Shown in pieces: positions 6,001 to 56,300 of a DNA stretch of 64,000 nt. A program made the translations under genes and the position numbers. The stretch spans positions 6,882,001 through 6,946,000 of the forward strand of contig CM120645.1 in assembly GCA_051362555.1 (NCBI GenBank). Direction: 5' to 3'. The notes beneath the pieces are model-generated. The model did no database searches. It was not told where the DNA came from and was given only the letters and a program-made list of their open reading frames with translations. Source of the DNA: Lingula anatina (taxonomy: Eukaryota > Animalia > Brachiopoda). The stretch's first letter is position 1. Each line of letters opens with the position of its first letter.

Positions 6001-7061
6001 CAGAGCTTACCTCCTCCAGACATGAAGAAAGATAGAGCTGCATCTTCGTCGTTGTCGCCATCAGGGCGCCGTGAGGGACCGTCCTCAGCACAGTCCTCAC
6101 ACAAGACACAGGGCAAGTCTGTGGCTGGCAGTGATAGTAAGTGTCATCACCCCCATCTGCCACCCTCCCACCCACCCATTAACATGTATCAACCTGTGGC
6201 ACCCTGTATAAGCCAAGATATGTACCTAGTGCAATATATGCAAATGTATTGATGGGTTTATAAGTGGCCTTATACCTTTCCTTTCCATTCCAGATGGCAC
6301 TGCTGCACCTAAGAGCCCAGCAACTGTTGCCACGACGGCTGTCTCTAAGGACTCTAAGGAGGGAGAGGCTCCCAAACGGAGACGTACCAAGAAAGCCGAG
6401 GCAGAGGCTGCAGCAGCCGAACTGGCAAGGAAGTTTGGAATATGCTGTGTGCCAGTTAGAATGGCTATTCTCTTTGGTGGTAGGTATAAAAAACTTGCTA
6501 AGAACTCATATTGATTGTGTTAGGTGAGATAAATGTTGAACCAATTGCTGTGGTTGAGATGTACTCATATTTATATTGATACAGTGTTGATTGGATATTT
6601 AATATAAAAATGAAATTGATTTCAAACTAGAAATGTCTCTCTTATGAGTAACTTAAATGGTAAATCTTGAAAAAGTAATATGCTGAAATATGAGGTTTTT
6701 GAAAAAAAATCAAGTAATGACCACCAAACCGATGGCTCTGTTTAAATATAAAGCCATGTTGTCTACCCTGTCAGGTATGAAGAGCCTCACCAACAGAATA
6801 GGGACCCCTGTCCCTGGGGTGGAGGACCTATTCTTTACTGTGACAGTGGACGGTCCACTCATGTCCGAGGAGCAGCACCGGGCACTTAACCCTATGATTA
6901 TTAAAGTGCATTCTGCCACCAACATGCCTGAGACCCCTCTGACTTATTCACAACTCAAACAAAAGTAAGTCTTGTTTTGAATCTGGATAAATCAAGTTTT
7001 GCATTACTTATTTGCTTATTTATTTTTTATGTCTCTTGTTTTGAATCTTAGTAAATCAGTT

Positions 7062-7100
<39 letters not shown>

Positions 7101-10100
7101 TTTTACTCCATATCAATTACCTCTCTGTTTAAGAATTTGATTGGAAAATGTTGCTATAATTTTTTCCTCAAATGCACCCTCAATTGTGAACTGTAGTCTT
7201 GATATTGAAGGGTCTCTGAGAGACAGCAAAAAAACTTACTTTACCCAAATTTGCAGTGATTTTTCAAAGTTAACAGTATTGAAATGCACATGCTTGTCAT
7301 ATATACTGTATTCTCTCTCTCTTTTTCTCAGATGTGATCCAGCCTATATCAAGTACCAGTTTTACAAACAGCCGTGGCACCTGAGTGTTGGGAGGGAGCA
7401 GGGAAAGAGCATCTACTGGGATGACCTCAATGTGGTCCTCTTAGGTGAGGAATTACTTACGGCTAGTTTACTGCACTTTTTTGTGTACTTGTGCTAAAAA
7501 ATATAGAAACTGTCATTACAAGAAAGTTAATCATCTAAGTGAGATGAATAATGACAGTAATTTTTTTTTTTTTTTGTATATTTGTCTGCCACTATACTGA
7601 AACAAGATGAACTGCTGAGAAGCAAGATGTAAAACCTTCTAGGTGGATATAAATAACAGTTAACTGCAGTGAAAATGACATACTTTTTTATATTCATATA
7701 AAAACAAAGTTGTGATAGCTAAATATACAACTGTTATAATAACATCACAAGCTTTCAAAAGCAAATCAAAAAAATTTTTTTCACCCGCGTTTCCCCCGTG
7801 AGTAAAATCTTCAGTCCTTCAGTGTCAATACTTAGTTGCAAGATTGAGTTTCACCTCCATGTTGTCTTTGCCAGGCACAATTCCACCTTGTGAACTGAGG
7901 GAGCTGCTGAATGGCCCTCCCCTGGAGATAGGAGTCCATGACAGAGACCGCATCATTGAGAAGGAGAAGTTGAAAGCTACCTTATTCGGTGATGACCTGG
8001 AGGATGAAAAGATCAACAGTGTAGGAGCAGTCTCAGGTATGTATTCTATAAACTTAAGTTGGTGAGTCGCTGTTGTCCTGATAATTTGATTTTTACTCAT
8101 GTTATGAATTAAGAAAAGCCATAACAATTATAATGATAATTTCAAAAATTTTGTATTGAATGATAATTGATGTTTTTTGAAATAAAATGGAAGATTCAAT
8201 ATGGACCTTCTTTTTTTTTTATATCCAAAGAGCTCAGTTTTTGGCATTTGGTGTGTTATTTGTCTTATCTAAGATAAAAACTGATGGTAAAGCTTTAAAC
8301 AACATGAAACTGACTCACTTGAAGCAAACAAGTTTTACAAGTCAGAATAAATTCATATAATAATTCCAGGCAGGAGAACTCTGTTCAACCCCCTGAAAGG
8401 CCGCCCCAAGCCCTGGGACCCGTACGCCGTGGGAAAGTTCGACCTGTCAGAACTCCTCCTGGGGGAGAGGGTGATGAATCTTAAGGTGCCCCTACACAAC
8501 TGCCCCCCACCTGACCTCCTGGGTATGAAGAACACAGAGGAAGGGAAGGTGTTTGGTGTGGAGGGGGCTGTGGATGGACCAGGTAAGTTGGTGTACAGTG
8601 CAGGGATATGGTGATTCAAGTGATACCCTGATGACAGAGGGTTATATTCTGACCCAAACACATGGGATTGCCTTGTAATGCATGGAATTTAAAAATTTTC
8701 CCTGATTTCGGGGGTCTTTTACTGATTAATTGTACCACCAGCGTAGGCGCTGGCGGTACCCATGGTTTTAGTCCCGACCCGTATGTTCCGCCGGCTCCTG
8801 CGGCTCCTGCGGCTCCTGCGGCTCCGCCGCCAAGTCACCGTTACCGCTTCTCCTCCTAGACGGTAAGGGCCCCTGTACCCATCTCTTGGATTTAGGTCAC
8901 CTATAATCTCAACTCGTTCCACGTAAAATTTGGGCTTTGTCGGTATTGGGGTCTAGGTGTGGCACTCATTGCAATGCACCCTTGTCTAAAAATGGCAAAA
9001 TTAAATGCTAATTATCTACCCTACGGAAGGAGTAATGGGAAAAATTTCTACAGACAGCTTTCCAAAAGTCATATGTGTAGATTTCAAATATGCCCTTGGA
9101 TTTGACCTTTGACCTTTATTTCAAGGTCAAACGGGCCAAAATTTTCAAAAAAATGAAATTTTTTACGAAAAAAATTTTTTTTGCCCTGTTATTCAGACAC
9201 CACATAGACTTTACCAATGATATTATTGGAAAGTGTTACCCTTCGGGTCATCTTTCATCTCCGTGAATTTGGGGTCAATCGGTGCATTTTCACGGGAGTA
9301 GCGGCCATAAAGTACCTAAACTGAAAACTGTCTCTAATTTGGGAACCGTTAATGCTAGAGACCCATTCTTTTTTGCATTTTGTAGAGCATGTAAAGCCCA
9401 ACACTGGAGGTGGTCTCCGTTTTTTTGTATTCCATACGGTTTTCAAGTTACGCTGTATAAAAAAGTACATATTGGTGGTGAAAGCAAAATGTGCAGTACG
9501 GTAATGGATAATAAATTTTGAACTCTGGAAAAATAATACAAAAGGCTTGGCAAAGCAGACAACTTGTGGTCAAAAATGACATTATTTCATCAAATTTGAA
9601 CTTCTGGAACTTCAGAGCACCTCTTATTTTAAGAATTTTGACCAAAGTGATGTTTTCTTTATTTTAGTTAATTTTTTTCTGTAGGAAATTTATGGCACAT
9701 TATGGTAACTCCAAAATTATAACAATTAGTCCCTTATGTCTCCAAAACTGGCAGAGATAGGTCCATAGTTACTATTAAAGTTGAATAGGAAGTCATATAG
9801 TGGCAATCTTACTGTGACCTTGAAATTGACCTTTGACCTACTTTTCACCATGAACTGAACTTTGCAAATTTTGCTTCCCTTTTATCTCCAAAACTGGCAG
9901 AGATAGGTCCATAGTTACTATTGAACTTGAATAGGAAGTCATATACTGGCAATCCAAATGTGACCTTGAAATTGACCTTTGACCTACTTTTCACCATGAA
10001 CTGAACTTTGCAAATTTTGCTGCCCTTTTATCTCCAAAACTGGCAGAGATAAGTCCATAGTTACTATTGAAGTTGAATGGGAAGTCATATACTGGCAATC

Positions 10101-19527: not shown

Positions 19528-19692
19528 CAGGCCCGTAGCCAGCAATTTCAAAAGGGGGGTTCTTTTTCTGAAAAAGTGGACCTTTTCCCATAAAAACTTC
19601 ATGTACCTAGATCAAATTTTACCCAGAGTGGACCTTTCCCAGCAAAAGGGGCGGTTCTTTCGAACCCCCGACCCCCCCTGGCTACGGGCCTG
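19528..19692. mobile_element. MITE with 15-bp TIRs and 5-bp TSD
   Basis: CAGGCCCGTAGCCAG ... CTGGCTACGGGCCTG, flanked by ATAAA on both sides. Related copy at 48550-48671. Confidence 0.85.
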
Positions 19693-46300: not shown

Positions 46301-48411
46301 TTTCATTATGCTGACACTTAGAATTTTTACAACAAACCTCCTACAGGTCAGAATATTATTCAAATTCTCCAAGAAAGAAAATTTAAATAACATTTTTCCC
46401 TTCCATATACCTCTGTGATAATACCATCCACAATAGTAGCAAGCTGTCAGAAAGCAAAGAGAGAGAGAACGTGGCAAAGGCTAAATAATTAAAATAAACA
46501 ATTTATTTCAAGGTCAATCAGTTCACCTTCTCCTGTCGCTTAATTAACAGCTACTTAGCATAAAGGAGCAAAATTTTAATTTACAGTAGGCTTAAAAGTC
46601 ATGCAATACCCTCATGCCAAAACAACTTTCCATAATCTGATTAAATTTTTTTTCAGGGTCAATCCTTACAAAAATGGCTAAAAAAAATCTATCCCTAGAC
46701 TGCGGTCAGTGAGTTCACATTACCTTCAGACTGTCCAGATATCTCTTGGGGTGGACAATCATCAGGTCATCTGCAGAGGCTTCGCGTGGTCGTACAGTGG
46801 TGTCATCCCTGATCATTCCTGCCTCTGGAACAAGACAATAAGAACAATTACATTATATATATTATATTTCATCACATGCTTCATCAATCTAAAACATACA
46901 TGACTGACTGGTGCAACAGCTAACTACATGTAGTACTGGCACTAGTACTTGTGCAAGGTGCAACTACCCACTGATTCTGTAGGTGGAATTTGACAACTGA
47001 TTTGCATGTAAACAAAGAGATTGTTTACTAGTAATTTACAGTTAAGTTCACGAGAATCTTACCATCTTAAAAATCTTACTTTCAGTAGTTAATAACATTT
47101 AAGTTTAACTTGACAATTTAGAGATTGTCTGAAGTGAGACTACCAAATGATGATATTATACAAGTATTATACAAGTATATCACCTTTAAGAAACTCATAG
47201 ACTCTCCCCCACTTCCCAGCATCAAATGGATGCACTTTCTCCATGCCCCAGAAGCTGATGTTGTACTCTGAGCAGTAGATCAAAGGCCAGCATGTCTCCG
47301 CCACATCAAAGTATAGCTGAGTTCTATGGTTTGACAGTGCACTGGCTGCTCTTCAAGGAGAAGACAAAAGAAAATTTTAGTATCCTATGAATGAAACCCA
47401 GAGTCTGCCACTGCAAGGACAACTTAATAACGTGTACTTAAGATTAATGAAAAACATTTAAGTTGGAATGTTCTACTCATATACATAACTGTGCATGACC
47501 ACTCCTATGCTTTGCATAGACTTGATGAGGACAAGATTATAACAAAATACAACTTTCTAGGGCACTCCCCTTCAGTGCACCCTGAGCTTCAGAGATAACT
47601 TGACACTAACCTCTTCACAATAGCCTATCTTCATCGTGTCAAGTTACCTCTGACGAAAATAGTTTGACCTAGTTTATTTAAGCCAATCGAATCCAAATTT
47701 CAAAATTTTTCACCAAAGTTTGGTGAAAACGCTGATTGGTTGACCGTTAATCGGCAATCCTCGGCTGATTCTGCAAGCTCTATACTTACAACAAAGTGTG
47801 CGGAGACATCCGAGTAGTTCCGAGTGCATAACCGTACACGAGTAACTACATAAAATAATGTGTTAAGTTATCTCTTGATTCTTTGCAAAATATGAGTATA
47901 TTGGAATTGAAACCAGAGCAGTTTGAGGCACTGCATCATTATCTACTGAGGGATGATGTATTTTGCGTGCTGCCCACAGGTTACGGCAAGTCCCTGATAT
48001 TCAGCCTTATCTTTGATTGGTCCGGATTTGAACCAAGCGCGCTTTGACTCGTTCGTGTTCATTGGCTAGATCGTTCAATGAGTTATTGAGTGCGGGCTTT
48101 AAATTTGATTGGCGGGCGGCGGGGGCAATCGAATGTGGTCAGAGGTAACTTGACACGATGAAGATAGGCTATTGTGAAGAAGTTAGTGTCAAGTTATCTC
48201 TGAAGCTCAGGGTGCTTCAGTGTAAAAAATAAAAATAATAATAATAATTCAACTTCTTTTTTTTTTATTTCTCCCAAAATGTTAAAAGAATAACTTAGTA
48301 AAATAACAACATTACCATTAAAATGTCTACAAATAAAACTCACCTATCCAGTTTGTTATGTTTATCAGTTTCACTGGGATTTTCATGGTCAGGTTTGTCG
48401 TCATCAGCCAT
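41191..48411 (-). CDS. HDAC11: Histone deacetylase 11 (class IV), 10 coding exons
   Basis: Exons 48344-48411, 47184-47350, 46724-46824, 43873-43989, 43452-43631, 43224-43320, 42960-43029, 42592-42700, 41874-42060, 41191-41405, phase-consistent. Motifs HPFDAGKWG, NIGGGFHHCS..GGGFCAYAD, IIDLDAHQGNGHERD, YNAGTDILDGDPLG, TSGGYQ. Confidence 0.97.
43350..43391. repeat. (AAT)n microsatellite
   Basis: ~14 AAT units in an HDAC11 intron. Confidence 0.95.
44366..44479. mobile_element. Degenerate copy of the CAGGCCC-TIR MITE family
   Basis: CAGGCCCA ... TGGGCCTG with a G-tract, and AAAAGGTCAACTTTTTCAG inverted relative to the 19528 copy. Confidence 0.55.
47578..48214. mobile_element. Non-autonomous DNA transposon, ~77-bp TIRs, 8-bp TSD, carrying a RecQ helicase fragment
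   Basis: TIR CACCCTGAGCTTCAGAGATAACTTGACACTAAC..CTTCACAATAGCCTATCTTCATCGTGTCAAGTTACCTCTGAC at 47578-47654, inverted at 48138-48214. TSD CTTCAGTG at 47570-47577 and 48215-48222. Confidence 0.92.
47892..48047 (+). pseudogene. RecQ-type DEAH helicase N-terminal fragment (motif 0/I)
   Basis: Translates MSILELKPEQFEALHHYLLRDDVFCVLPTGYGKSLIFSL...; LKPEQ and LPTGYGKSL are the RecQ Q-motif and Walker A. Confidence 0.8.
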
Positions 48412-48549
48412 GATGATGTATTGCTATGGTGATAGCTGCCTGTAGGCTTTTATGGTGATGAGGGGGTGAATTCACATGTTGGTGTTTGTTAATACTGAAA
48501 ACAACAGATATACAACATATACCAGAATCTGTCTGAATTTGTGCTATAG

Positions 48550-48671
48550 CAGTCCCTAGGCCAGTAACTTCAAAAGGGGGGGTCTTTTTCTGAAAAAGTG
48601 GACCTTCTACCATTTTCCAGCAAAAAAGGGGGTTCGTTCGAACCCCTGGAACCCCCCTGGCTATGAGCCTG
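48550..48671. mobile_element. CAGGCCC-TIR MITE copy with 5-bp TSD, inserted in the putative 3' LTR
   Basis: CAGTCCCTAGGCCAG...CTGGCTATGAGCCTG flanked by TATAG/TATAG; internal TTCAAAAGGGGGG..TTTTTCTGAAAAAGTGGACCTT as at 19528. Confidence 0.8.
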
Positions 48672-49340
48672 TATAGCATGTGGCTTATTTAATAAATAAT
48701 CAGAAATTCACTGTTTCCACTTAGTGAGTGAGATTACAGATCACTGTGTGTTGCCACTATATATCTATACAGATCTTGATCTACAGGAACATCCTTACAA
48801 GGATATCTCAGGTGTACACAATGTGAGGGTGTCACCTCACCACCTGACCTGTGTGTAACTCACCTCAGTATAAAAAATCTTGGCCCATGAAGAGCTGACC
48901 AGGTGAAGGAAAGAAAATGCTCGATCACAACATTCCCCCTACTTTTATTCAAAAAGAGTCAAAATTGGGTTAAGTTTTGCAAAAATGAATTAATACTTGT
49001 TTAGACATGTAAAAATTATCACATAAATGAAATTGTAATTTCCAGTCGATAGATTTGAGCAGACTGATGTTAGCTGTTGTTAATGCTAACGACATCACTG
49101 GAGTGAAAGTCTGCCAAAAATAAATTAATTATTTAATTTAAAAAAAAACAAAAAAAAAAAAAACAGAAAAGACTGTGATAACTGTTAACTCACCAGTTAG
49201 TCACATCACTCATTCAGTGATAGTCTATTCAAATAAATGAAATACTGGAAAGTCAAAAATAAAATCAAAATAGGCTGTAGTCATATGATACAACTGTCCA
49301 CTACATCACATAGTGATAATCTATTATACTGTGCGGATTA

Positions 49341-51620
49341 TTACCTTCTATAGACAGTAATACCATTTTCAGTTGTAACCTTTAAAACATGGCCCACATC
49401 CACCCCTCTGTGCCGTGCTAGAATATCTGCCGTTTCATAAATGATATAGTGAGTTGAGTGGCCCCCCTTTGTGGCAGCAGTATAGGGGGCATCTGACTCC
49501 AAGAGAAGCTTAGAGTCAGGAACCGCCCTAAGTGCTGCAAGTTGATGTTGGTTAAAATTAGCAGCAAGCCGGGTGAAACCAAAGTAAGTGTTTGGCTGCT
49601 GCTTTCTCCAAATTTCCAAGAGGGACTTGGAGCCTGTGAAGCAATGAAAGTGGATTTTCTGGGACTGTGGAACGCCACACAGTTTTAGATGAAACAGAAG
49701 GGAACGTATGGCAAACTCACCACCTTCAGAGTCCCCTTTCATGCCTCTACAGTGTACCACTAGGACGTGCCTAGGTTCTAGAAATGGCAAAATTCTGTGT
49801 AGCAACTCTACCTGATCCTGCCATTTTGACATGGGTTCAGTATGATCGAAACCTATCAGGCCAAATGCTGTCACTGAAGGTACCTTGACTAACTCTGAGA
49901 GAGCTTTAATGGCCTGGGTCAGTGTGCCCTGGGAAAGCTTACCAGCTAGCTTCGGGTGGAAACCGATGGCTATGTACTCGACCTTAGACAAAGTAGAGAG
50001 ATACCCTTTAGAGGGATATGTCTTGGGATCGCAATACACAGCCACCGTTCCCAGCAAATCTACCTCTTTCCCAGAACAAACGGGAGCCATACCTCTAAGA
50101 TTTTCCAACTTGCCCGAGTGTGGAAGACCAAAGGCAGCAATAGATCTATCTACGCGATAGTGGCTGTCAAAAGCTGGCCATACTAACTTTCTTGGTTCCC
50201 CAGCCTCCAGACCAGTTTCTGGCCCGCTGAACCCTCTGGTCCACAACAACCTCTGCTGCTCCGTGATAGAAGCAGACAGCTGTGTGAGGACTCTCCAGTC
50301 CAGCAGCACCCCGACAGAGTTGGCAGGGTATAAGGTGAAATGTGCTGGGACTGGCTTATTAAGGAATTTGCAGAAATTTTGCATGGCAGAAATTTGAAGT
50401 GGTGAAAACAAGCCATGTTGCAAATCTAATATATCAGGCAAGGCTGAAACAAACTGGTACAACGAATCCAGCTCTTGCTTGAAACCAAAAATGAAAATGG
50501 TCACCATCTCCAATGCCTTCACTATTATGCCCAAGATATTGGGCTCAAGGTTGGCCCGCTCACAAAAGATAGATGGAACATGCAGACCCAGTGAATGTTC
50601 CCTGAGCATATGTCTCTCCAATTTCACCCCACACCCAGGGACCACACAAAGCATCTTCGGGTGATCTTTTCTGGCCCTTTTGGGATCAGGTCCAACCACT
50701 CGAGATGTCATTTGGAGAAACCTTTCAGTATCCCTAGCTGAAGGAGGAGGAAGCTCCACTGGACCAACACGTTTATCAACTTTAGATTTCGCCGCAGCTG
50801 AAACCTTGCCAGTTTTTTTGCCCTGCCTCCACCAAGGAGCCCTCTTCTTCCCCTTTCGCTTACCGCTCCCTGTGGACTGATTCGATTCAGATCCAGAAGC
50901 AGAAACTGGAGTTCCTGCTGGAGCAGCAGCTTCAAAGTGTAAACCCGAAGAAGAAGAAATAGAAGGGTTTATTGGGATGGCGGTATTCTGCTGCAAGTTT
51001 GGGCCAGGATTAGAAGTATGAAGTAAACCGGGAGGAGTAACACTGGGCTCTGCTTCCCTCGGGACTCCTAAAATTCTAACCCCCTGACTGCAGTGAGGGC
51101 TGGAGTTGGGATCGATATTTTTTGATCTCACACCAAGTTCAGACTGGCCCCAGTGCGATACCCCCTGCATTGGCTCCACTGGAAAACCCTCATCGACCAC
51201 CTGGGTAACAACAGTCATGTTTGGACCTGCTCCAGGCCTGAAGACATGGGATGATCCGCCACACACCTCAGAGGGTGCAGACTTCACAACCTGCCCAGGT
51301 GGTATAAAGTTCTTGGTAAGGCGCCACACATTTTTGTCAATCCAAGTTTTGGATGCAAGGCCCCTAGATTGAAGCTGGTAAGCCACTTGCTGCAACCATG
51401 CTAAAGCCAGGGCAGACCTAGCAGGTGAACGAAGCTCCTTTTTATAAATGGCAGCCATTCCTGACACCAGGGTTCTAAAATAACATTGCTGATCTTCCCC
51501 AGGCAAAACCTGAACCAAGTCCTGCACAAATTTTGTGCCTGGGACATGAATAGGATACCCATGTTGTAATCTTACATTCACTTCCTTTACAATTGGTGCT
51601 TGCTCATTGTTGCTTGCCAT
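49341..51620 (-). CDS. Intronless 759-aa protein: low-complexity N-terminus with basic NLS, C2H2-like zinc finger, C-terminal TatD-like (amidohydrolase TIM barrel) nuclease domain
   Basis: Open ORF starting MASNNEQ at 51620 after acceptor TTGTTATTACAG|AT ATG. TatD motifs FDSHYR, IGFHP, GLIGFD, VVHCR, HFHCFTG, LLLESDAPY, TTENG. CVVPGC-x11-H-x4-H finger. KRKGKKR. Confidence 0.88.
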   Translation of the reverse strand: MASNNEQAPIVKEVNVRLQHGYPIHVPGTKFVQDLVQVLPGEDQQCYFRTLVSGMAAIYKKELRSPARSALALAWLQQVAYQLQSRGLASKTWIDKNVWRLTKNFIPPGQVVKSAPSEVCGGSSHVFRPGAGPNMTVVTQVVDEGFPVEPMQGVSHWGQSELGVRSKNIDPNSSPHCSQGVRILGVPREAEPSVTPPGLLHTSNPGPNLQQNTAIPINPSISSSSGLHFEAAAPAGTPVSASGSESNQSTGSGKRKGKKRAPWWRQGKKTGKVSAAAKSKVDKRVGPVELPPPSARDTERFLQMTSRVVGPDPKRARKDHPKMLCVVPGCGVKLERHMLREHSLGLHVPSIFCERANLEPNILGIIVKALEMVTIFIFGFKQELDSLYQFVSALPDILDLQHGLFSPLQISAMQNFCKFLNKPVPAHFTLYPANSVGVLLDWRVLTQLSASITEQQRLLWTRGFSGPETGLEAGEPRKLVWPAFDSHYRVDRSIAAFGLPHSGKLENLRGMAPVCSGKEVDLLGTVAVYCDPKTYPSKGYLSTLSKVEYIAIGFHPKLAGKLSQGTLTQAIKALSELVKVPSVTAFGLIGFDHTEPMSKWQDQVELLHRILPFLEPRHVLVVHCRGMKGDSEGGEFAIRSLLFHLKLCGVPQSQKIHFHCFTGSKSLLEIWRKQQPNTYFGFTRLAANFNQHQLAALRAVPDSKLLLESDAPYTAATKGGHSTHYIIYETADILARHRGVDVGHVLKVTTENGITVYRR

Positions 51621-51647
51621 ATCTGTAATAACAATGTACAATTAGGA

Positions 51648-52560
51648 TTAGATTTGACAGTTTGCACACGTGTTTGTTGACGTATAATGTTTCTGTTGTT
51701 GTTTATTAGCAGCCAAATATGCCTCAATCCAAGAGGGAATTTTTCTTTCCCTACAGGGCATTAGCCTGTCATGGTTTGTGACAAATATTACATATTTTAG
51801 CTTTACTTGATACAAATAGACAGACAATTTCTTTTCAATGATGGTGGCCCAATGAAAAAATTTTTTTTGTGATTGCCTTTAATTGTTGCCATTTCCAAAA
51901 CATAAACCAGATCCTTTTAAGCATAAGGTCTAAGCAAGATTTTAAGGTCATAAACTTGTTTCAAGAATTTTGAAGTTGCTTTTAATTGGCTGTAATATGA
52001 GATAATTTTATTCTTTGGACTAATTTTGAAATGTATTCACCATAAGAAGATTTTTTTAAATTTCAGATTTGGAACTGTTCACCATAGTTTTGGCTGGATT
52101 ACCAACTTTCTTCCAAAGCATGTGCATATAAGGGATATACCCATACCTCTGTTTTCAGAAGCATACAATGCACCTGCAATTTGCTGGATATATTTGTCTC
52201 ACTTACAAAAAAAAAAGTATCCATCAGGGTACGATTGAACCTTTCATCCTAACCAAATGGTTGGTATTGGAATAGCCTGATTTGTGTACATATGTAAAGC
52301 TGTACACAAATCCACAAACAACCAACTCACAAAATTCTGCCCATGTGTGTTTTTTGTAATTATGTCACTTGATTTGAAATAAGACACACATATGTAAGGT
52401 TTCATCTGGATCCGATCCAGAATGGATTGTGTAAATTGCAAGATGTACTGGTAACCCTTACGCAATGGCCATTGTACTTTTGTAAGCAAAAGATAAATTG
52501 GTATTAAAAAAGTTACACTTATCAAAGCAAATTACACCACCATGCTTAGATGGAAAATTC
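51648..52560 (-). pseudogene. Degenerate Gypsy integrase core and C-terminal domain
   Basis: Minus-strand peptides in shifting frames: KGYQYILQFT, HGQNFVSWLFVDLCTALH, ERFNRTLMD (52219-52245), DKYIQQIAGAL..SENRG (52166-52198), YDLKILLRPY*KDLVYVL (~51895-51952), KKLSVYLYQVKL, NHDRLMPCRERKIPSWI (51726-51776). Multiple stops and frameshifts. Confidence 0.85.
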
Positions 52561-53077
52561 ACTATGAATAGAATCCAAATACATACAATTAATTAATTTG
52601 GGAACAAAGATTTTGGCAAACAATACAATAAATTCAAACCAGACAAAAATTCTGCTCAGAATTCTATCTAAACTACAAAAGAATATTAAGCAAATAAGGA
52701 AAGAAAATGCTAGAACACAACAGTAAAATTAATTTTCCATAAATATAATTATTTCTCTGACAATTCTTTGACCCTTTTCACTTGATGTAATATTTTTTTT
52801 TTAATGTCACATATGTCAACGACAGCGATGCCATTTTCAGCAATATAAGAGAGTAAAATTAAATTCTTGGATCCAGGGTAATATGTGTAATATTACACTG
52901 CAATCAAGTATATTTCATTGTTCCAAGGTTCATGCAGAGTAAAACGTAATTTACAGTGAAATCTATAACAAACATATCCGGTGCATTTTCACGTATTGCC
53001 TACGCATCTGTAACGTTTTATTCGATGCACGGTCATTAAAAACTGAGTTAATGCCATAGGATTATCTCAAAACTCAC

Positions 53078-53130
53078 CAAAAATATAACACCCTACAAAA
53101 TATTTGCTGTGTACTCTTGCCACTTCCGGT
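53078..53130 (-). other. Putative non-coding leader exon of HDAC11 (and possibly of the TatD-like ORF)
   Basis: Consensus donor TTG|GTGAGT at 53077 on minus, just downstream of the CpG-containing promoter. Confidence 0.6.
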
Positions 53131-53205
53131 CTCTTCTGTTTTGACTTAGAACGAGGCACATCCGGGCAGTTCCGCAAATGGCGTGCGCTTTGAAGCCGCG
53201 AGCTG
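53115..53205. promoter_or_regulatory. Bidirectional promoter HDAC11/LIN37 with ETS, YY1-like and CDE/CHR-like motifs
   Basis: CACTTCCGGT (53121-53130), CAAATGGCG (53175-53183), GGCGTGCGC-TTTGAA (53180-53194) between divergent first exons. Confidence 0.65.
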
Positions 53206-53300
53206 AGTTGATACACAAAACTAACCAGTGATTATTATCATATTATAGCATCATATGAAGTGGGTTTGCGTCAGGGTGCTAAGCGAATTGTCAGTTGTGC

Positions 53301-56300
53301 ATGAAAATGAGTTCAAGGTCGAGATCAGGTATGGAATTATGCATTATTATTTTGGGATTCGTTCGCTGCTCTGATCCTGTTTTGACTCGAGTTCTGTCCA
53401 AGTTCTAAGCATTTTGAAGACGTCTAAACCGACATGTCATATGCAGCATGCCTGTGACATTTGTGTAGACCTATTGTGTTTGTGTGTGAGTGTGTGTTTG
53501 TTTGAATATATATTGCTTAAATGTTAAAGACAGTACCCCTAAAATTTCAAAGAAACGATTCCACTAAAACAACATGCAATAAAAATGAAAATCTGGTCTC
53601 ATCGAAAATTATATTAGATAATTAAAAATGCAGTTCGCCCACTGTCATTCGAATTAAAAGTATTAGATTCAGAGGACATTGTGTGTGACTGATTGGTTTT
53701 GTTGAATTTTGTTTCATTTTCTTTTGCATTGTAACCATTGTTTTTGTAGACAACAACACAGAGGTTGTTACTGCAAGAAGTCGCCTGGATGGAGTTTTGC
53801 AGACACTTGTGGATAAGAAGGACGATAGGTAAAGAACATTAAAAAATTCCCCCACGTTGTTGTATTATGATGAAATTCCTATTATCAATTTATACTTGGA
53901 TGTAGTTAAAACAATCAGAATCTGTCACTCCTTTCCATTTTGAAATCAGATTCAAAAATTTAATTTTGTTATTTATTATTGATGTAATTATTTTTCTTTA
54001 TAGAAATATTTTCTTCAGTACCCAAGATATCAATTTCTATGTTGTTTATGCTTGCCTTACTTTGGCATGCACTGTCTTTTTTCCCTTTTTGTCTGTATTA
54101 ACTTCTCTGTTGATATTCCAGCATAGAGATAGATGTTGACATTCAGATCAAAGAGGAGCCCACTGAAGACTCTCCAGTCAAGTAAGCATGCCATATTCTT
54201 TATCATCTGTTTTGAATGGTTTTACTAATGTCTGTATATTGGGACCTAGTCCAAAACAAAACACATTTAATTTAATGATAAGAAACATTGACAAATAAAA
54301 GCAAAAAAAGAAAGAAAAAAATGAAAATCATTTTCAATTATCTATATAATTATACTAATATTTATATAATTTGACTTTTAAAACTTCTATTTGCACTGAA
54401 TATGACTACCTTGGTTAAACTTAAACAATTGCTGTACTTATTTGTAAGTAAAGATGTATGTCGTTCACAACTGAACAACCTGATAGAAGCTAAATAGAGG
54501 TGTGTGTGTGTGTTAACTCTGACCAAAACTACATCTATTTTTCTGTTTTCTTTTTTCAGAGTGAGCACACCACGGAAATCTACCATTAGCACACCAGGCA
54601 GCAGTACAAAGTCCCCAGCAGCCAAGAAAAGAAAGAGAAAAGATGATGGGCCTGGTGGTGAGGTGGGCCAGTATCACCGTAAGTACTGTGATATATGATA
54701 ATTATCAAGCATTAGTCAATATACTTTTATATCTTTAGCTTACCTGGACATAGGCCTTCATCAGTCTGATGTGAGTAGATGTTGTTACTCACTGACCACT
54801 AGGTACTATAGTGGCCTCTCATAAATGTCAGGTAGATCAACAGATTTTGCTCCTGAACTTTAGTTGAATGTTTGCTTTCAGACACCTATGTAATGAAGCT
54901 GTTTGACCGTAGTGTGGATCTGGCTCAGTTCACTGAAAACACCCCACTGTATCCTGTGTGTCGAGCCTGGATACGCAACCAACCACACAACAGAGAGCTG
55001 GGCATCAAGAGATTAGAGACGCCTGAACCAGAGGAGTTGAGCGATGAGGAGGTATTAAGTTTTATAGACTTTGCTGAGCCTATATTCAGATTAAGCACTG
55101 TACCTCATGATTGTCTTTGTGAAAGTGGCAGTCTTTTTGTGTGTGCAGGCTTCATTCCAGTGCTCAAAGTTAACATACTATTTATTTATACTTATTTCTG
55201 TCCCAATTGTAACTTATATGGTAACTCCATTTTATCCTTTAGTAACATCACTAACATCAATATAGAATTATATTTACCAAAAAAAAAAATGAAAAAAAAA
55301 ATCTTATTATTTAATTTTCTGTGTATTACTCAGGAAGCAGAAGGCCCTAAGAACGTGTATCGTCTCCCTGCTGCCCTTGGTCCAGTAAAACGTGAACCTG
55401 GTCATGCATTCATGCACACTGACCTGAGAGTGCCCTCACCAGTACCTCAACCTGATCTGCCTCTGGATGTACATGCTGTAAGTACCTGTACTCTGGGGTC
55501 TTCTTTACAAACTGGTGAACGGTTTCATCCAAGATAGAATTCCTGTGTCATAGTAGTGATGATTGTTATTTTTTAAAGAATAAGATAAATATATATAAAT
55601 AAAATTATAATTGTTATTATTTATTTATCTGTTTAGGTTTTTATTTTATTTTATTCATTAATTTTTTTTTCTGCGATGGGGGGTGGGGGGGGGGGGGGGA
55701 GAACAGATCAAAATGTAATATGCTAGCTCAAGCACCACAGGGGCAAGACCCTTGAGATCGATGAAACAGTTAAGGTCAGTTTTTCATTTCAGTTGAAACC
55801 TGGCCTTAATTATGCATGAAAGTTATTTAGTATGATTGATTCAGAAGTTAATTTTTTTGTTTCAGGACCAGGACCAAGCCCCTCCAGCAGAACAGTTACT
55901 ACTCAACCACATGGTCAGATGGAAGGAGATCAGACAAAAGTAAATACTGCATTGCTATCAGTACAAAGAAGGACATTTTGGTCTTGTAGGAGTCTCAACA
56001 CTGAAAACTACATTTAAGTGTCAGCTGCCATTTTAAGATATGATCACTTTTGATACAGTCTGATTTTGCGTCTGTTATTAGTACACTGCAGTGGGTTTGA
56101 GTGTTGGGTTGAATTCAGCTCTTTTTTGTGCCATTATAGCAACATACTGCTGGGGATTTTTTTTTATATTTGGGGTGCATTTAACGTTTAAATATATTTC
56201 ATGTCTTTTAGGTGGAAAGTGCAGTCCATAGTCAATGAAGCTCGTTATGCAGAAAGTTTACATGTGATCAAAGATATATATGACTACCAGATGCAGCAGT

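Follow-up and report, generated by a model that had tools for sequence, protein, structure and literature searches.

The closest published case of a long terminal repeat (LTR) retrotransposon with a nuclease gene in the place of env is that of the bdelloid rotifer elements Juno and Vesta, Gypsy-like elements in which, as described in the available part of PMC5408684, a gene of the 3'-5' exonuclease type (the DEDDy ORF3) follows pol. Retroviral and Gypsy env genes are expressed by splicing. In errantiviruses and other env-carrying Ty3/gypsy elements the third open reading frame (ORF3) occupies the slot between pol and the polypurine tract (PPT) (PMC13524379, in part). Here we describe a Ty3/Gypsy lineage in which ORF3, found in this same slot, encodes a TatD-type nuclease, and a copy of it in the brachiopod Lingula anatina, situated in a stretch of 64,000 nucleotides (assembly GCA_051362555.1, contig CM120645.1, positions 6,882,001 to 6,946,000; hereafter the window, in whose own numbering coordinates are given). 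The window copy is a dead, internally deleted remnant and not an autonomous Gypsy element, and we estimate the probability that its unbroken ORF3 has been co-opted by the host as a non-cutting protein at about 0.7.

In both the DEDDy and the TatD ORF3s the catalytic residues are intact in most members. Their folds are unrelated, namely a TatD TIM barrel here and a DnaQ-like fold in Juno and Vesta; furthermore, the present ORF3 is a long multi-domain protein (~500–1100 aa), the integrase beside it carries a PHD finger, the two have been stably co-inherited across animal groups whereas the DEDDy gene was acquired in recent branches, and there is a probable host-co-opted inactive copy (Juno and Vesta being compared as they appear in the accessible text of PMC5408684). 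With this lineage, the nucleases known to replace env as the third gene of LTR retrotransposons come to include two unrelated folds. It differs from the errantivirus case in that its ORF3 has no fusion protein, and the terms TatD, nuclease and PHD never occur in the main text of PMC13524379. A term look-up in PMC6238403, PMC8556966, PMC2836005 and PMC13524379 gave no TatD or nuclease ORF, and the published literature that we searched describes no TatD-bearing LTR element, with the limit that Repbase, subscription journals and supplements lay outside this search and may hold one. Ginger1 DNA transposons also possess a Gypsy-type integrase, with a C-terminal PHD in one family, but have terminal inverted repeats and no reverse transcriptase (RT) (PMC2836005, in part), as against the direct repeats and PPT of the window element and the RT and RNase H (RH) of its relatives, and this identity was rejected.

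A first protein search found no relatives and a region search found four; the full-library search recovered 141 clusters at E<=1e-30, with named members from Lingula, Mercenaria, Argopecten, Ruditapes, Tegillarca and Lytechinus. Some of the 90% clusters have 24–52 members, many of them fragments, as expected for a repeat. Of the 301 genomes covered by a family-wide search, 2 yielded members; among viral contigs none of 156 stretches held a member, and a second viral search returned nine weak loci at 25–29% identity. The N-terminal regions of the proteins resemble one another loosely; there follow in all a low-complexity linker, the Cys/His plus helical domain and the TatD barrel, and some proteins (P0060, P0104 and P0128) have CCHC zinc knuckles in the linker. 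None of the 54 long members scanned contains an RT or integrase domain, and ORF3 is therefore a separate protein.

The initial annotation of the window had read it as a Gypsy element with a TatD ORF in the env position, on a reading of TatD domain, upstream integrase and flanking PPT and LTR starts that we confirm, and had proposed to test whether relatives of the ORF stand immediately downstream of Gypsy pol and between LTRs; in 17 of 24 family loci they do follow Gypsy pol, with a PPT and an LTR beyond them. Metagenome and genome scans, covering 2 of 64 parts, gave 160 loci, swamped by bacterial TatD; from these L001, L002 and L081 were taken as family, L004 (1144 bp) was omitted, and 20 formed the bacterial outgroup. 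The metagenome-assembled genome (MAG) G001 supplied 22 of the 26 loci in the context survey, G182 and the metagenomes two each; L198 and L201 were left out of the tally as they group with bacterial TatD. An integrase, or an integrase PHD, is found directly upstream on the same strand in 17 of the remaining 24 loci. The other seven have too little upstream DNA and none is clearly against linkage: the contigs of L001, L188, L193, L195, L196 and L200 end early, and L197 is borderline, with 936 nt upstream devoid of a match where its relative L194 has ~740 nt from the last integrase match to the ATG. In eight loci (L002, by Pfam, L181, L183, L184, L187, L190, L191, which is permuted, and L199) a single contig carries gag, protease (PR), RT, RH, integrase (IN), PHD and ORF3, and the closest PDB entry to the L002 pol is Ty3 Gag-Pol (E=6e-102). 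The order of the lineage is gag, pol (PR-RT-RH-IN-PHD), ORF3, PPT, LTR; it is a Ty3/Gypsy LTR retrotransposon by the pol order PR-RT-RH-IN behind gag, and the linkage of TatD to pol is not due to chance. Since the integrase cores of the pol-linked G001 loci, where visible, are only 51–77% identical to that of L002, the loci of this one MAG represent separate families.

Twenty of the 22 matching contigs of G001, a bacterial MAG, bear a TatD of the retrotransposon type, and this bin likely holds animal repeats; the NCBI entries named 'TatD family hydrolase [Ca. Thiodiazotropha]' (P0007, P0156 and P0157) look like similar contamination. The existence of the lineage suggests that many marine-invertebrate entries labelled 'TATDN2-like' or 'YcfH-like', and symbiont entries labelled 'TatD family hydrolase', are retrotransposon genes. 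One protein labelled TATDN2 (P0201) is an ORF3 relative. In PMC6962438 a term look-up gave only the listing of a 'putative TATDN2' inside the squid Hox cluster.

A comparison of TatD and integrase phylogenies, as had been suggested at the outset, was made with the 13 loci that have a full integrase core. Four supported clades are common to both trees, (L183,L191), (L186,L187,L199), (L081,L181,L182,L184) and (L181,L184), which points to one old capture of a TatD and its joint inheritance with the integrase. Such long inheritance with the integrase makes it probable that ORF3 has a genuine function in the element life cycle. In a quick tree the window TatD is nested among pol-linked TatDs, separate from the 20 bacterial ones (SH-aLRT 100), and falls in a 26-row clade (support 99) with five pol-linked loci, beside the Lingula protein P0002. 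The loci L194–L197 form a distant sub-branch with an ORF3 of ~500 aa, and the L194 integrase gave no PHD match.

The relatives have the PPT and primer site of LTR retrotransposons. Their PPT/LTR junction reads TAAAACGGGGAGGA[AG]/TGT or close variants (the slash marking the junction), and a TGGCG primer site stands shortly past ACA in L002, L184, L187, L188, L191 and L199. A donor-like GTGAG or GTAAG is found near the 3' end of the LTR in L002, L184, L187, L188, L191, L194 and L199; the LTRs of these donor-bearing relatives are ~190–370 bp long and are followed by the TGGCG site. At the other end of the presumed intron, a pyrimidine-rich YAG (pyrimidine content of 60% or more over 14 nt) that is no more than 20 nt from an ATG and no more than 260 nt from the pol stop occurs in 14 of the 17 loci, against 4.2 expected from shuffles, and in 9 of these 14 the ATG beside the acceptor opens 674–1093 codons; in L184 the rule chose a site earlier than the one adjoining the long ORF. 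A donor in the LTR and an acceptor at ORF3 are arranged as for env genes that are expressed by splicing, and ORF3 of this lineage is predicted to be made from a spliced message. The splice acceptor that the initial annotation had placed ahead of the window ORF can be read by eye (CTAAT..TTGTTATTACAG/ATATG), but it fell below the pyrimidine cut-off and was not picked by the rule.

Five integrase peptides quoted by that annotation are all present in the window, spread over three frames, and the last frame of the remnant ends at TAA 51650–51648, where it had set the stop. Against the L081 integrase the remnant (52342–51714) scores 310, as compared with 27–40 for 12 shuffles, with 95 of 225 columns identical, seven frameshifts and three stops, and tblastn gives E=9e-20 and 3e-13; the integrase similarity, which had been put forward as a check, is thereby upheld. 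The PHD finger of the relatives is gone from this copy save for a possible last CxxC, a PHD-like match at 52491–52438 being too weak to accept (iE 0.043). The TG-initiated LTR stub proposed at 52722 matches the start of the 3' LTR at 25 of 27 positions, the sole such match in the window (best of 300 shuffles, 19), but the likeness ends past 27 bp, and neither a primer-binding site (PBS) nor the remainder of the 5' LTR was found after the stub. The PPT and the second LTR start at 48932 are as had been described, the two LTR starts making direct repeats of the element ends, and the 3' LTR contains a donor-like GAG/GTGAGT at 48863. No gag, PR, RT or RH was found in the 64-kb window, and a target-site duplication (TSD), looked for around the element, was not found.

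Table 1. Features of the window copy and the intron that encloses it (window coordinates)
Feature	Position	Strand	Basis and remarks
Decayed Gypsy integrase (C-terminal half of core, C-terminal domain)	51648..52348	minus	tblastn, alignment, profile iE 2.8e-16
5' LTR stub, 27 bp, start TGTTGTG	52696..52722	minus	matches start of 3' LTR
Likely splice acceptor, CTAAT branch-like sites, TTACAG	51623..51650	minus	AG 51624–51623, 2 nt ahead of ATG
ORF3, 759 aa	49341..51620	minus	ATG 51620, coding to 49344, stop to 49341; unbroken
Family-specific Cys2-His2-like and helical domain, aa 318–469	50214..50669	minus	model pLDDT 93.6
TatD TIM barrel, aa 485–759	49344..50168	minus	Pfam, fold match; two metal-site residues gone
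Polypurine tract GAATAAAAGTAGGGGGAA	48933..48950	minus	sequence; directly abuts 3' LTR
3' LTR, start TGTTGTG at 48932	48681..48932	minus	3' end somewhere from ~48854 to 48681
Host 5' intron enclosing the entire element	48495..53077	minus	donor-like GT 53077, acceptor-like AG 48496–48495; ends read from sequence

The 759-aa ORF itself is exactly as first delineated (ATG 51620 to 49344). It consists of an N-terminal region (~aa 1–110), a low-complexity linker with a basic KRKGKKR (50861–50841), the Cys/His plus helical domain and the TatD barrel, the last of these being recognized by Pfam (TatD_DNase, aa 524–757, E=5.7e-25). An AlphaFold model of aa 318–759 has a pLDDT of 92.7 and finds as its top solved match a TatD barrel (E=2.5e-13), a query of the ESM Atlas drew only TatD clusters (0.82–0.83), and the closest solved protein is the bacterial YcfH (E=2e-39). 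The 'ZnF' of the initial annotation corresponds to C325-x4-C330...H342-x4-H347; its TatD half stands as noted, and both His of the motif are near-invariant in the family (80/91 and 84/91 rows), but no Pfam domain matches it, and its zinc binding is presumed. Foldseek found nothing at E<=0.001 among solved structures for the middle domain and VIA gave a best Z of 3.5, an absence of clear matches which does not demonstrate a new fold.

The family belongs, by its residues, to the group II (HxH) TatDs, with a TIM barrel and HxH, Glu, His, His, Glu and Asp ligands; of the 86 ungapped rows of the family, 80 have the full set of seven site residues. It has the HxH, barrel and acidic ligands in common with YcfH, YjjV, TATDN2 and TATDN3, and differs from these group II proteins in being retrotransposon-encoded and in its extra Cys/His plus helical domain (PMC10085689 and PMC10711561, each in part). 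The possible functions offered in the initial annotation for such an accessory nuclease (cDNA/RNA processing, anti-silencing or competition with other elements) would concern the lineage, in most members of which the site is complete, and not the window copy, whose degenerate site had been overlooked: Arg stands at aa 489 in place of the second HxH His, and Leu at aa 588 in place of the Glu of GExGxD. Loss of this Glu abolishes the activity of TATDN2, and since the equivalent residue is essential in TATDN2 (E593) and E. coli TatD (E91), little or no activity is expected of the window protein (PMC10711561, accessible part). The Lingula proteins P0012 and P0175 represent a second set of long ORF3s devoid of HxH and other ligands, another pseudo-nuclease branch.

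Despite this loss the frame has been kept. The 629 bp of integrase have 10 breaks, whereas ORF3 has none over its 2277 bp (Poisson P=2e-16), from which it follows that ORF3 has been under selection after the death of the integrase. It retains 51 of 57 near-invariant columns. The database protein closest to it is P0209 of Lingula anatina, which keeps both HxH and the Glu and aligns with it over 509 aa without gaps at 76% identity; in all there are two such close relatives (76–77% identical), on different contigs, both with the Glu. Since their divergence the window branch and P0209 have gained 29 and 30 derived changes in total.

The element is located in a 5' intron of a host gene, as reads of RNA run X18 connect 53103 with 48487/48489; it has the same orientation as this gene, which encodes a histone deacetylase, given Pfam Hist_deacetyl matches on the exons 43631–43440 and 42717–42568 of the minus strand, and likely has its ATG at 48410. 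By its motifs it is probably HDAC11-like. The X18 joint reads have 38–40 letters between the two sides, matching 53102–53071 only in part, and the first exon of X18 accordingly differs from the window allele. In the lineage, a donor close to where the 5' LTR ends would join the acceptor at the ORF3 ATG to yield the ORF3 message. In the window copy this LTR donor is lost, and the host first exon, which has no ATG in 53150–53078, would splice to the ORF3 acceptor instead; the product would be a nucleic-acid-binding pseudo-nuclease driven by the host promoter. The window copy is a candidate case of domestication of a retrotransposon accessory enzyme, and not of gag, env or integrase.

Depth of RNA along ORF3 is low, at ~0.2–1.8 in run X18, and the stranded run X15 has sense-only depth of 0.5–1.4 over 50121–51705; the run index lists no RNA run containing the stretch. 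Five DNA runs from two studies contain 53–96% of its words, and X1 may be the source. DNA depth across ORF3 is ~90–140, as in the flanks, against 85,000–209,000 in nearby repeats, read depth not being copy number by the tool's own caution.

Several observations weigh against the co-option of the window copy and the lineage to which we trace it. Of the changes at 116 conserved sites, 8 fall on the window branch and 1 on that of P0209 (p=0.039), which fits either the early decay of a gene under relaxed selection or a shift to a non-catalytic role. The RNA depth is about 1, near nil in run X12 and zero in X15 over 49170–50120, and may be that of host pre-mRNA; among the joints listed none enters the 51623 acceptor, so that spliced expression, which the initial annotation had assumed, is backed by the conserved acceptors and LTR donors and not by these reads. 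Further, a single contaminated MAG, G001, is the source of 15 of the 17 loci linked to pol, making the host sampling thin, and the LTR pairs of the relatives have mostly been collapsed by assembly to single copies, two copies being seen only in L184, inside its terminal overlap. Finally, the closest solved protein is the bacterial YcfH, and, there being no true TATDN2 among the sequences compared, a TATDN2 origin of the family is conjectural.

As to the function of the active protein, it would enter the nucleus and work there as a 3'-5' exonuclease. Its substrate could be, on a tentative analogy, RNA in the RNA:DNA hybrids that arise at the element or in replication intermediates, a view that we take because of the group II HxH site, the TATDN2-like long N-terminus and its basic stretch, and a Cys spaced like C538. 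Human TATDN2 acts on R-loops; like the family it is extended at the N-terminus by a long segment containing a basic stretch, and its C538 lies 55 residues before E593, where the family has a CDP Cys 58 residues before the catalytic Glu (PMC10711561, in part). Almost as probable, though it too is only a possibility, is a role in countering silencing: the ORF3 of active elements would be a counter-defence nuclease, destroying or trimming host silencing RNAs or shielding the nascent RNA of the element, and not a helper of replication. This would sit well with a separate gene that is inherited stably with the integrase, with the PHD of chromatin-reader type on that adjacent integrase, and with the catalytically altered versions that keep open frames (the window copy and Lingula P0012), which suggest that binding can be of use by itself. 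For the DEDDy ORF3s, too, a connection with silencing has been raised (PMC5408684, available part). The TatD enzymes of PMC10085689 and PMC10711561, however, act on single-stranded DNA, AP sites and R-loop RNA, no small-RNA activity being described in the accessible parts of these papers.

For the window copy itself, an unlikely alternative to co-option is that a non-autonomous sub-lineage kept its ORF3 under selection while moving in trans, its integrase having decayed, and that the window holds a later insertion which is now decaying, the lost metal ligands being the first damage. The excess of conserved-site changes and the very low RNA depth agree with this, as do the two Lingula anatina relatives, which keep the Glu on different contigs and of which P0209 keeps HxH too. 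It accords poorly with a 5' LTR of only 27 bp with two differences and with the missing PBS and TSD, and the DNA depth reveals no large family at 90% identity; moreover, the window branch has changed ~11% of its residues with zero stops or frameshifts. That a host TatD gene stands beside an integrase fragment by chance, or was captured once and recently by a single element, is very improbable: public databases do label relatives as host genes (TATDN2-like, YcfH-like), but the 17 diverged pol-linked loci from three assemblies, with congruent trees and a common layout of acceptor, PPT and LTR, refute it. Just as improbable, an env-like membrane protein would suit the position of ORF3 and its hydrophobic segment (aa 362–380, Kyte-Doolittle mean 2.2), but this segment is a helix inside a confidently modelled globular domain and is charged in relatives, and with the C-terminal domain fitting TatD barrels by Pfam and fold a membrane fusion glycoprotein of the errantivirus kind is ruled out.

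Co-option of the window ORF3 as a non-cutting protein can be set, more doubtfully, in a wider history: an old Gypsy clade of brachiopods, bivalves and echinoderms, whose spliced accessory gene would encode an R-loop nuclease akin to TATDN2 and equipped with a novel domain for zinc binding, might have been domesticated more than once as a pseudo-nuclease, with the window copy as an alternative product of the histone deacetylase promoter, perhaps acting against its parent elements.

Certain other features of the window and of the related loci were noted. The histone deacetylase gene (48410 to ~41836, minus strand) and LIN37 (53268–55500, plus strand), for which there are spliced reads, are arranged head to head around 53100–53270. 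A high-copy short repeat is found just past the 3' LTR (48550–48670), with a further copy at 19528, and the segment 47577–48215, where DNA depth is very high, is a MITE-like element whose inverted ends are 93 nt long (92%). The segment 9445–12089 is a 146-bp tandem array with higher-order repeats. In L081 the LTR region is broken up by transposase-like ORFs (6482–7254, minus strand), which by their motifs are probably mariner-like, and the N-terminus of the L002 gag (8564–9034 of that locus), which has no Pfam match, presumably contains a helix-hairpin-helix-like motif.

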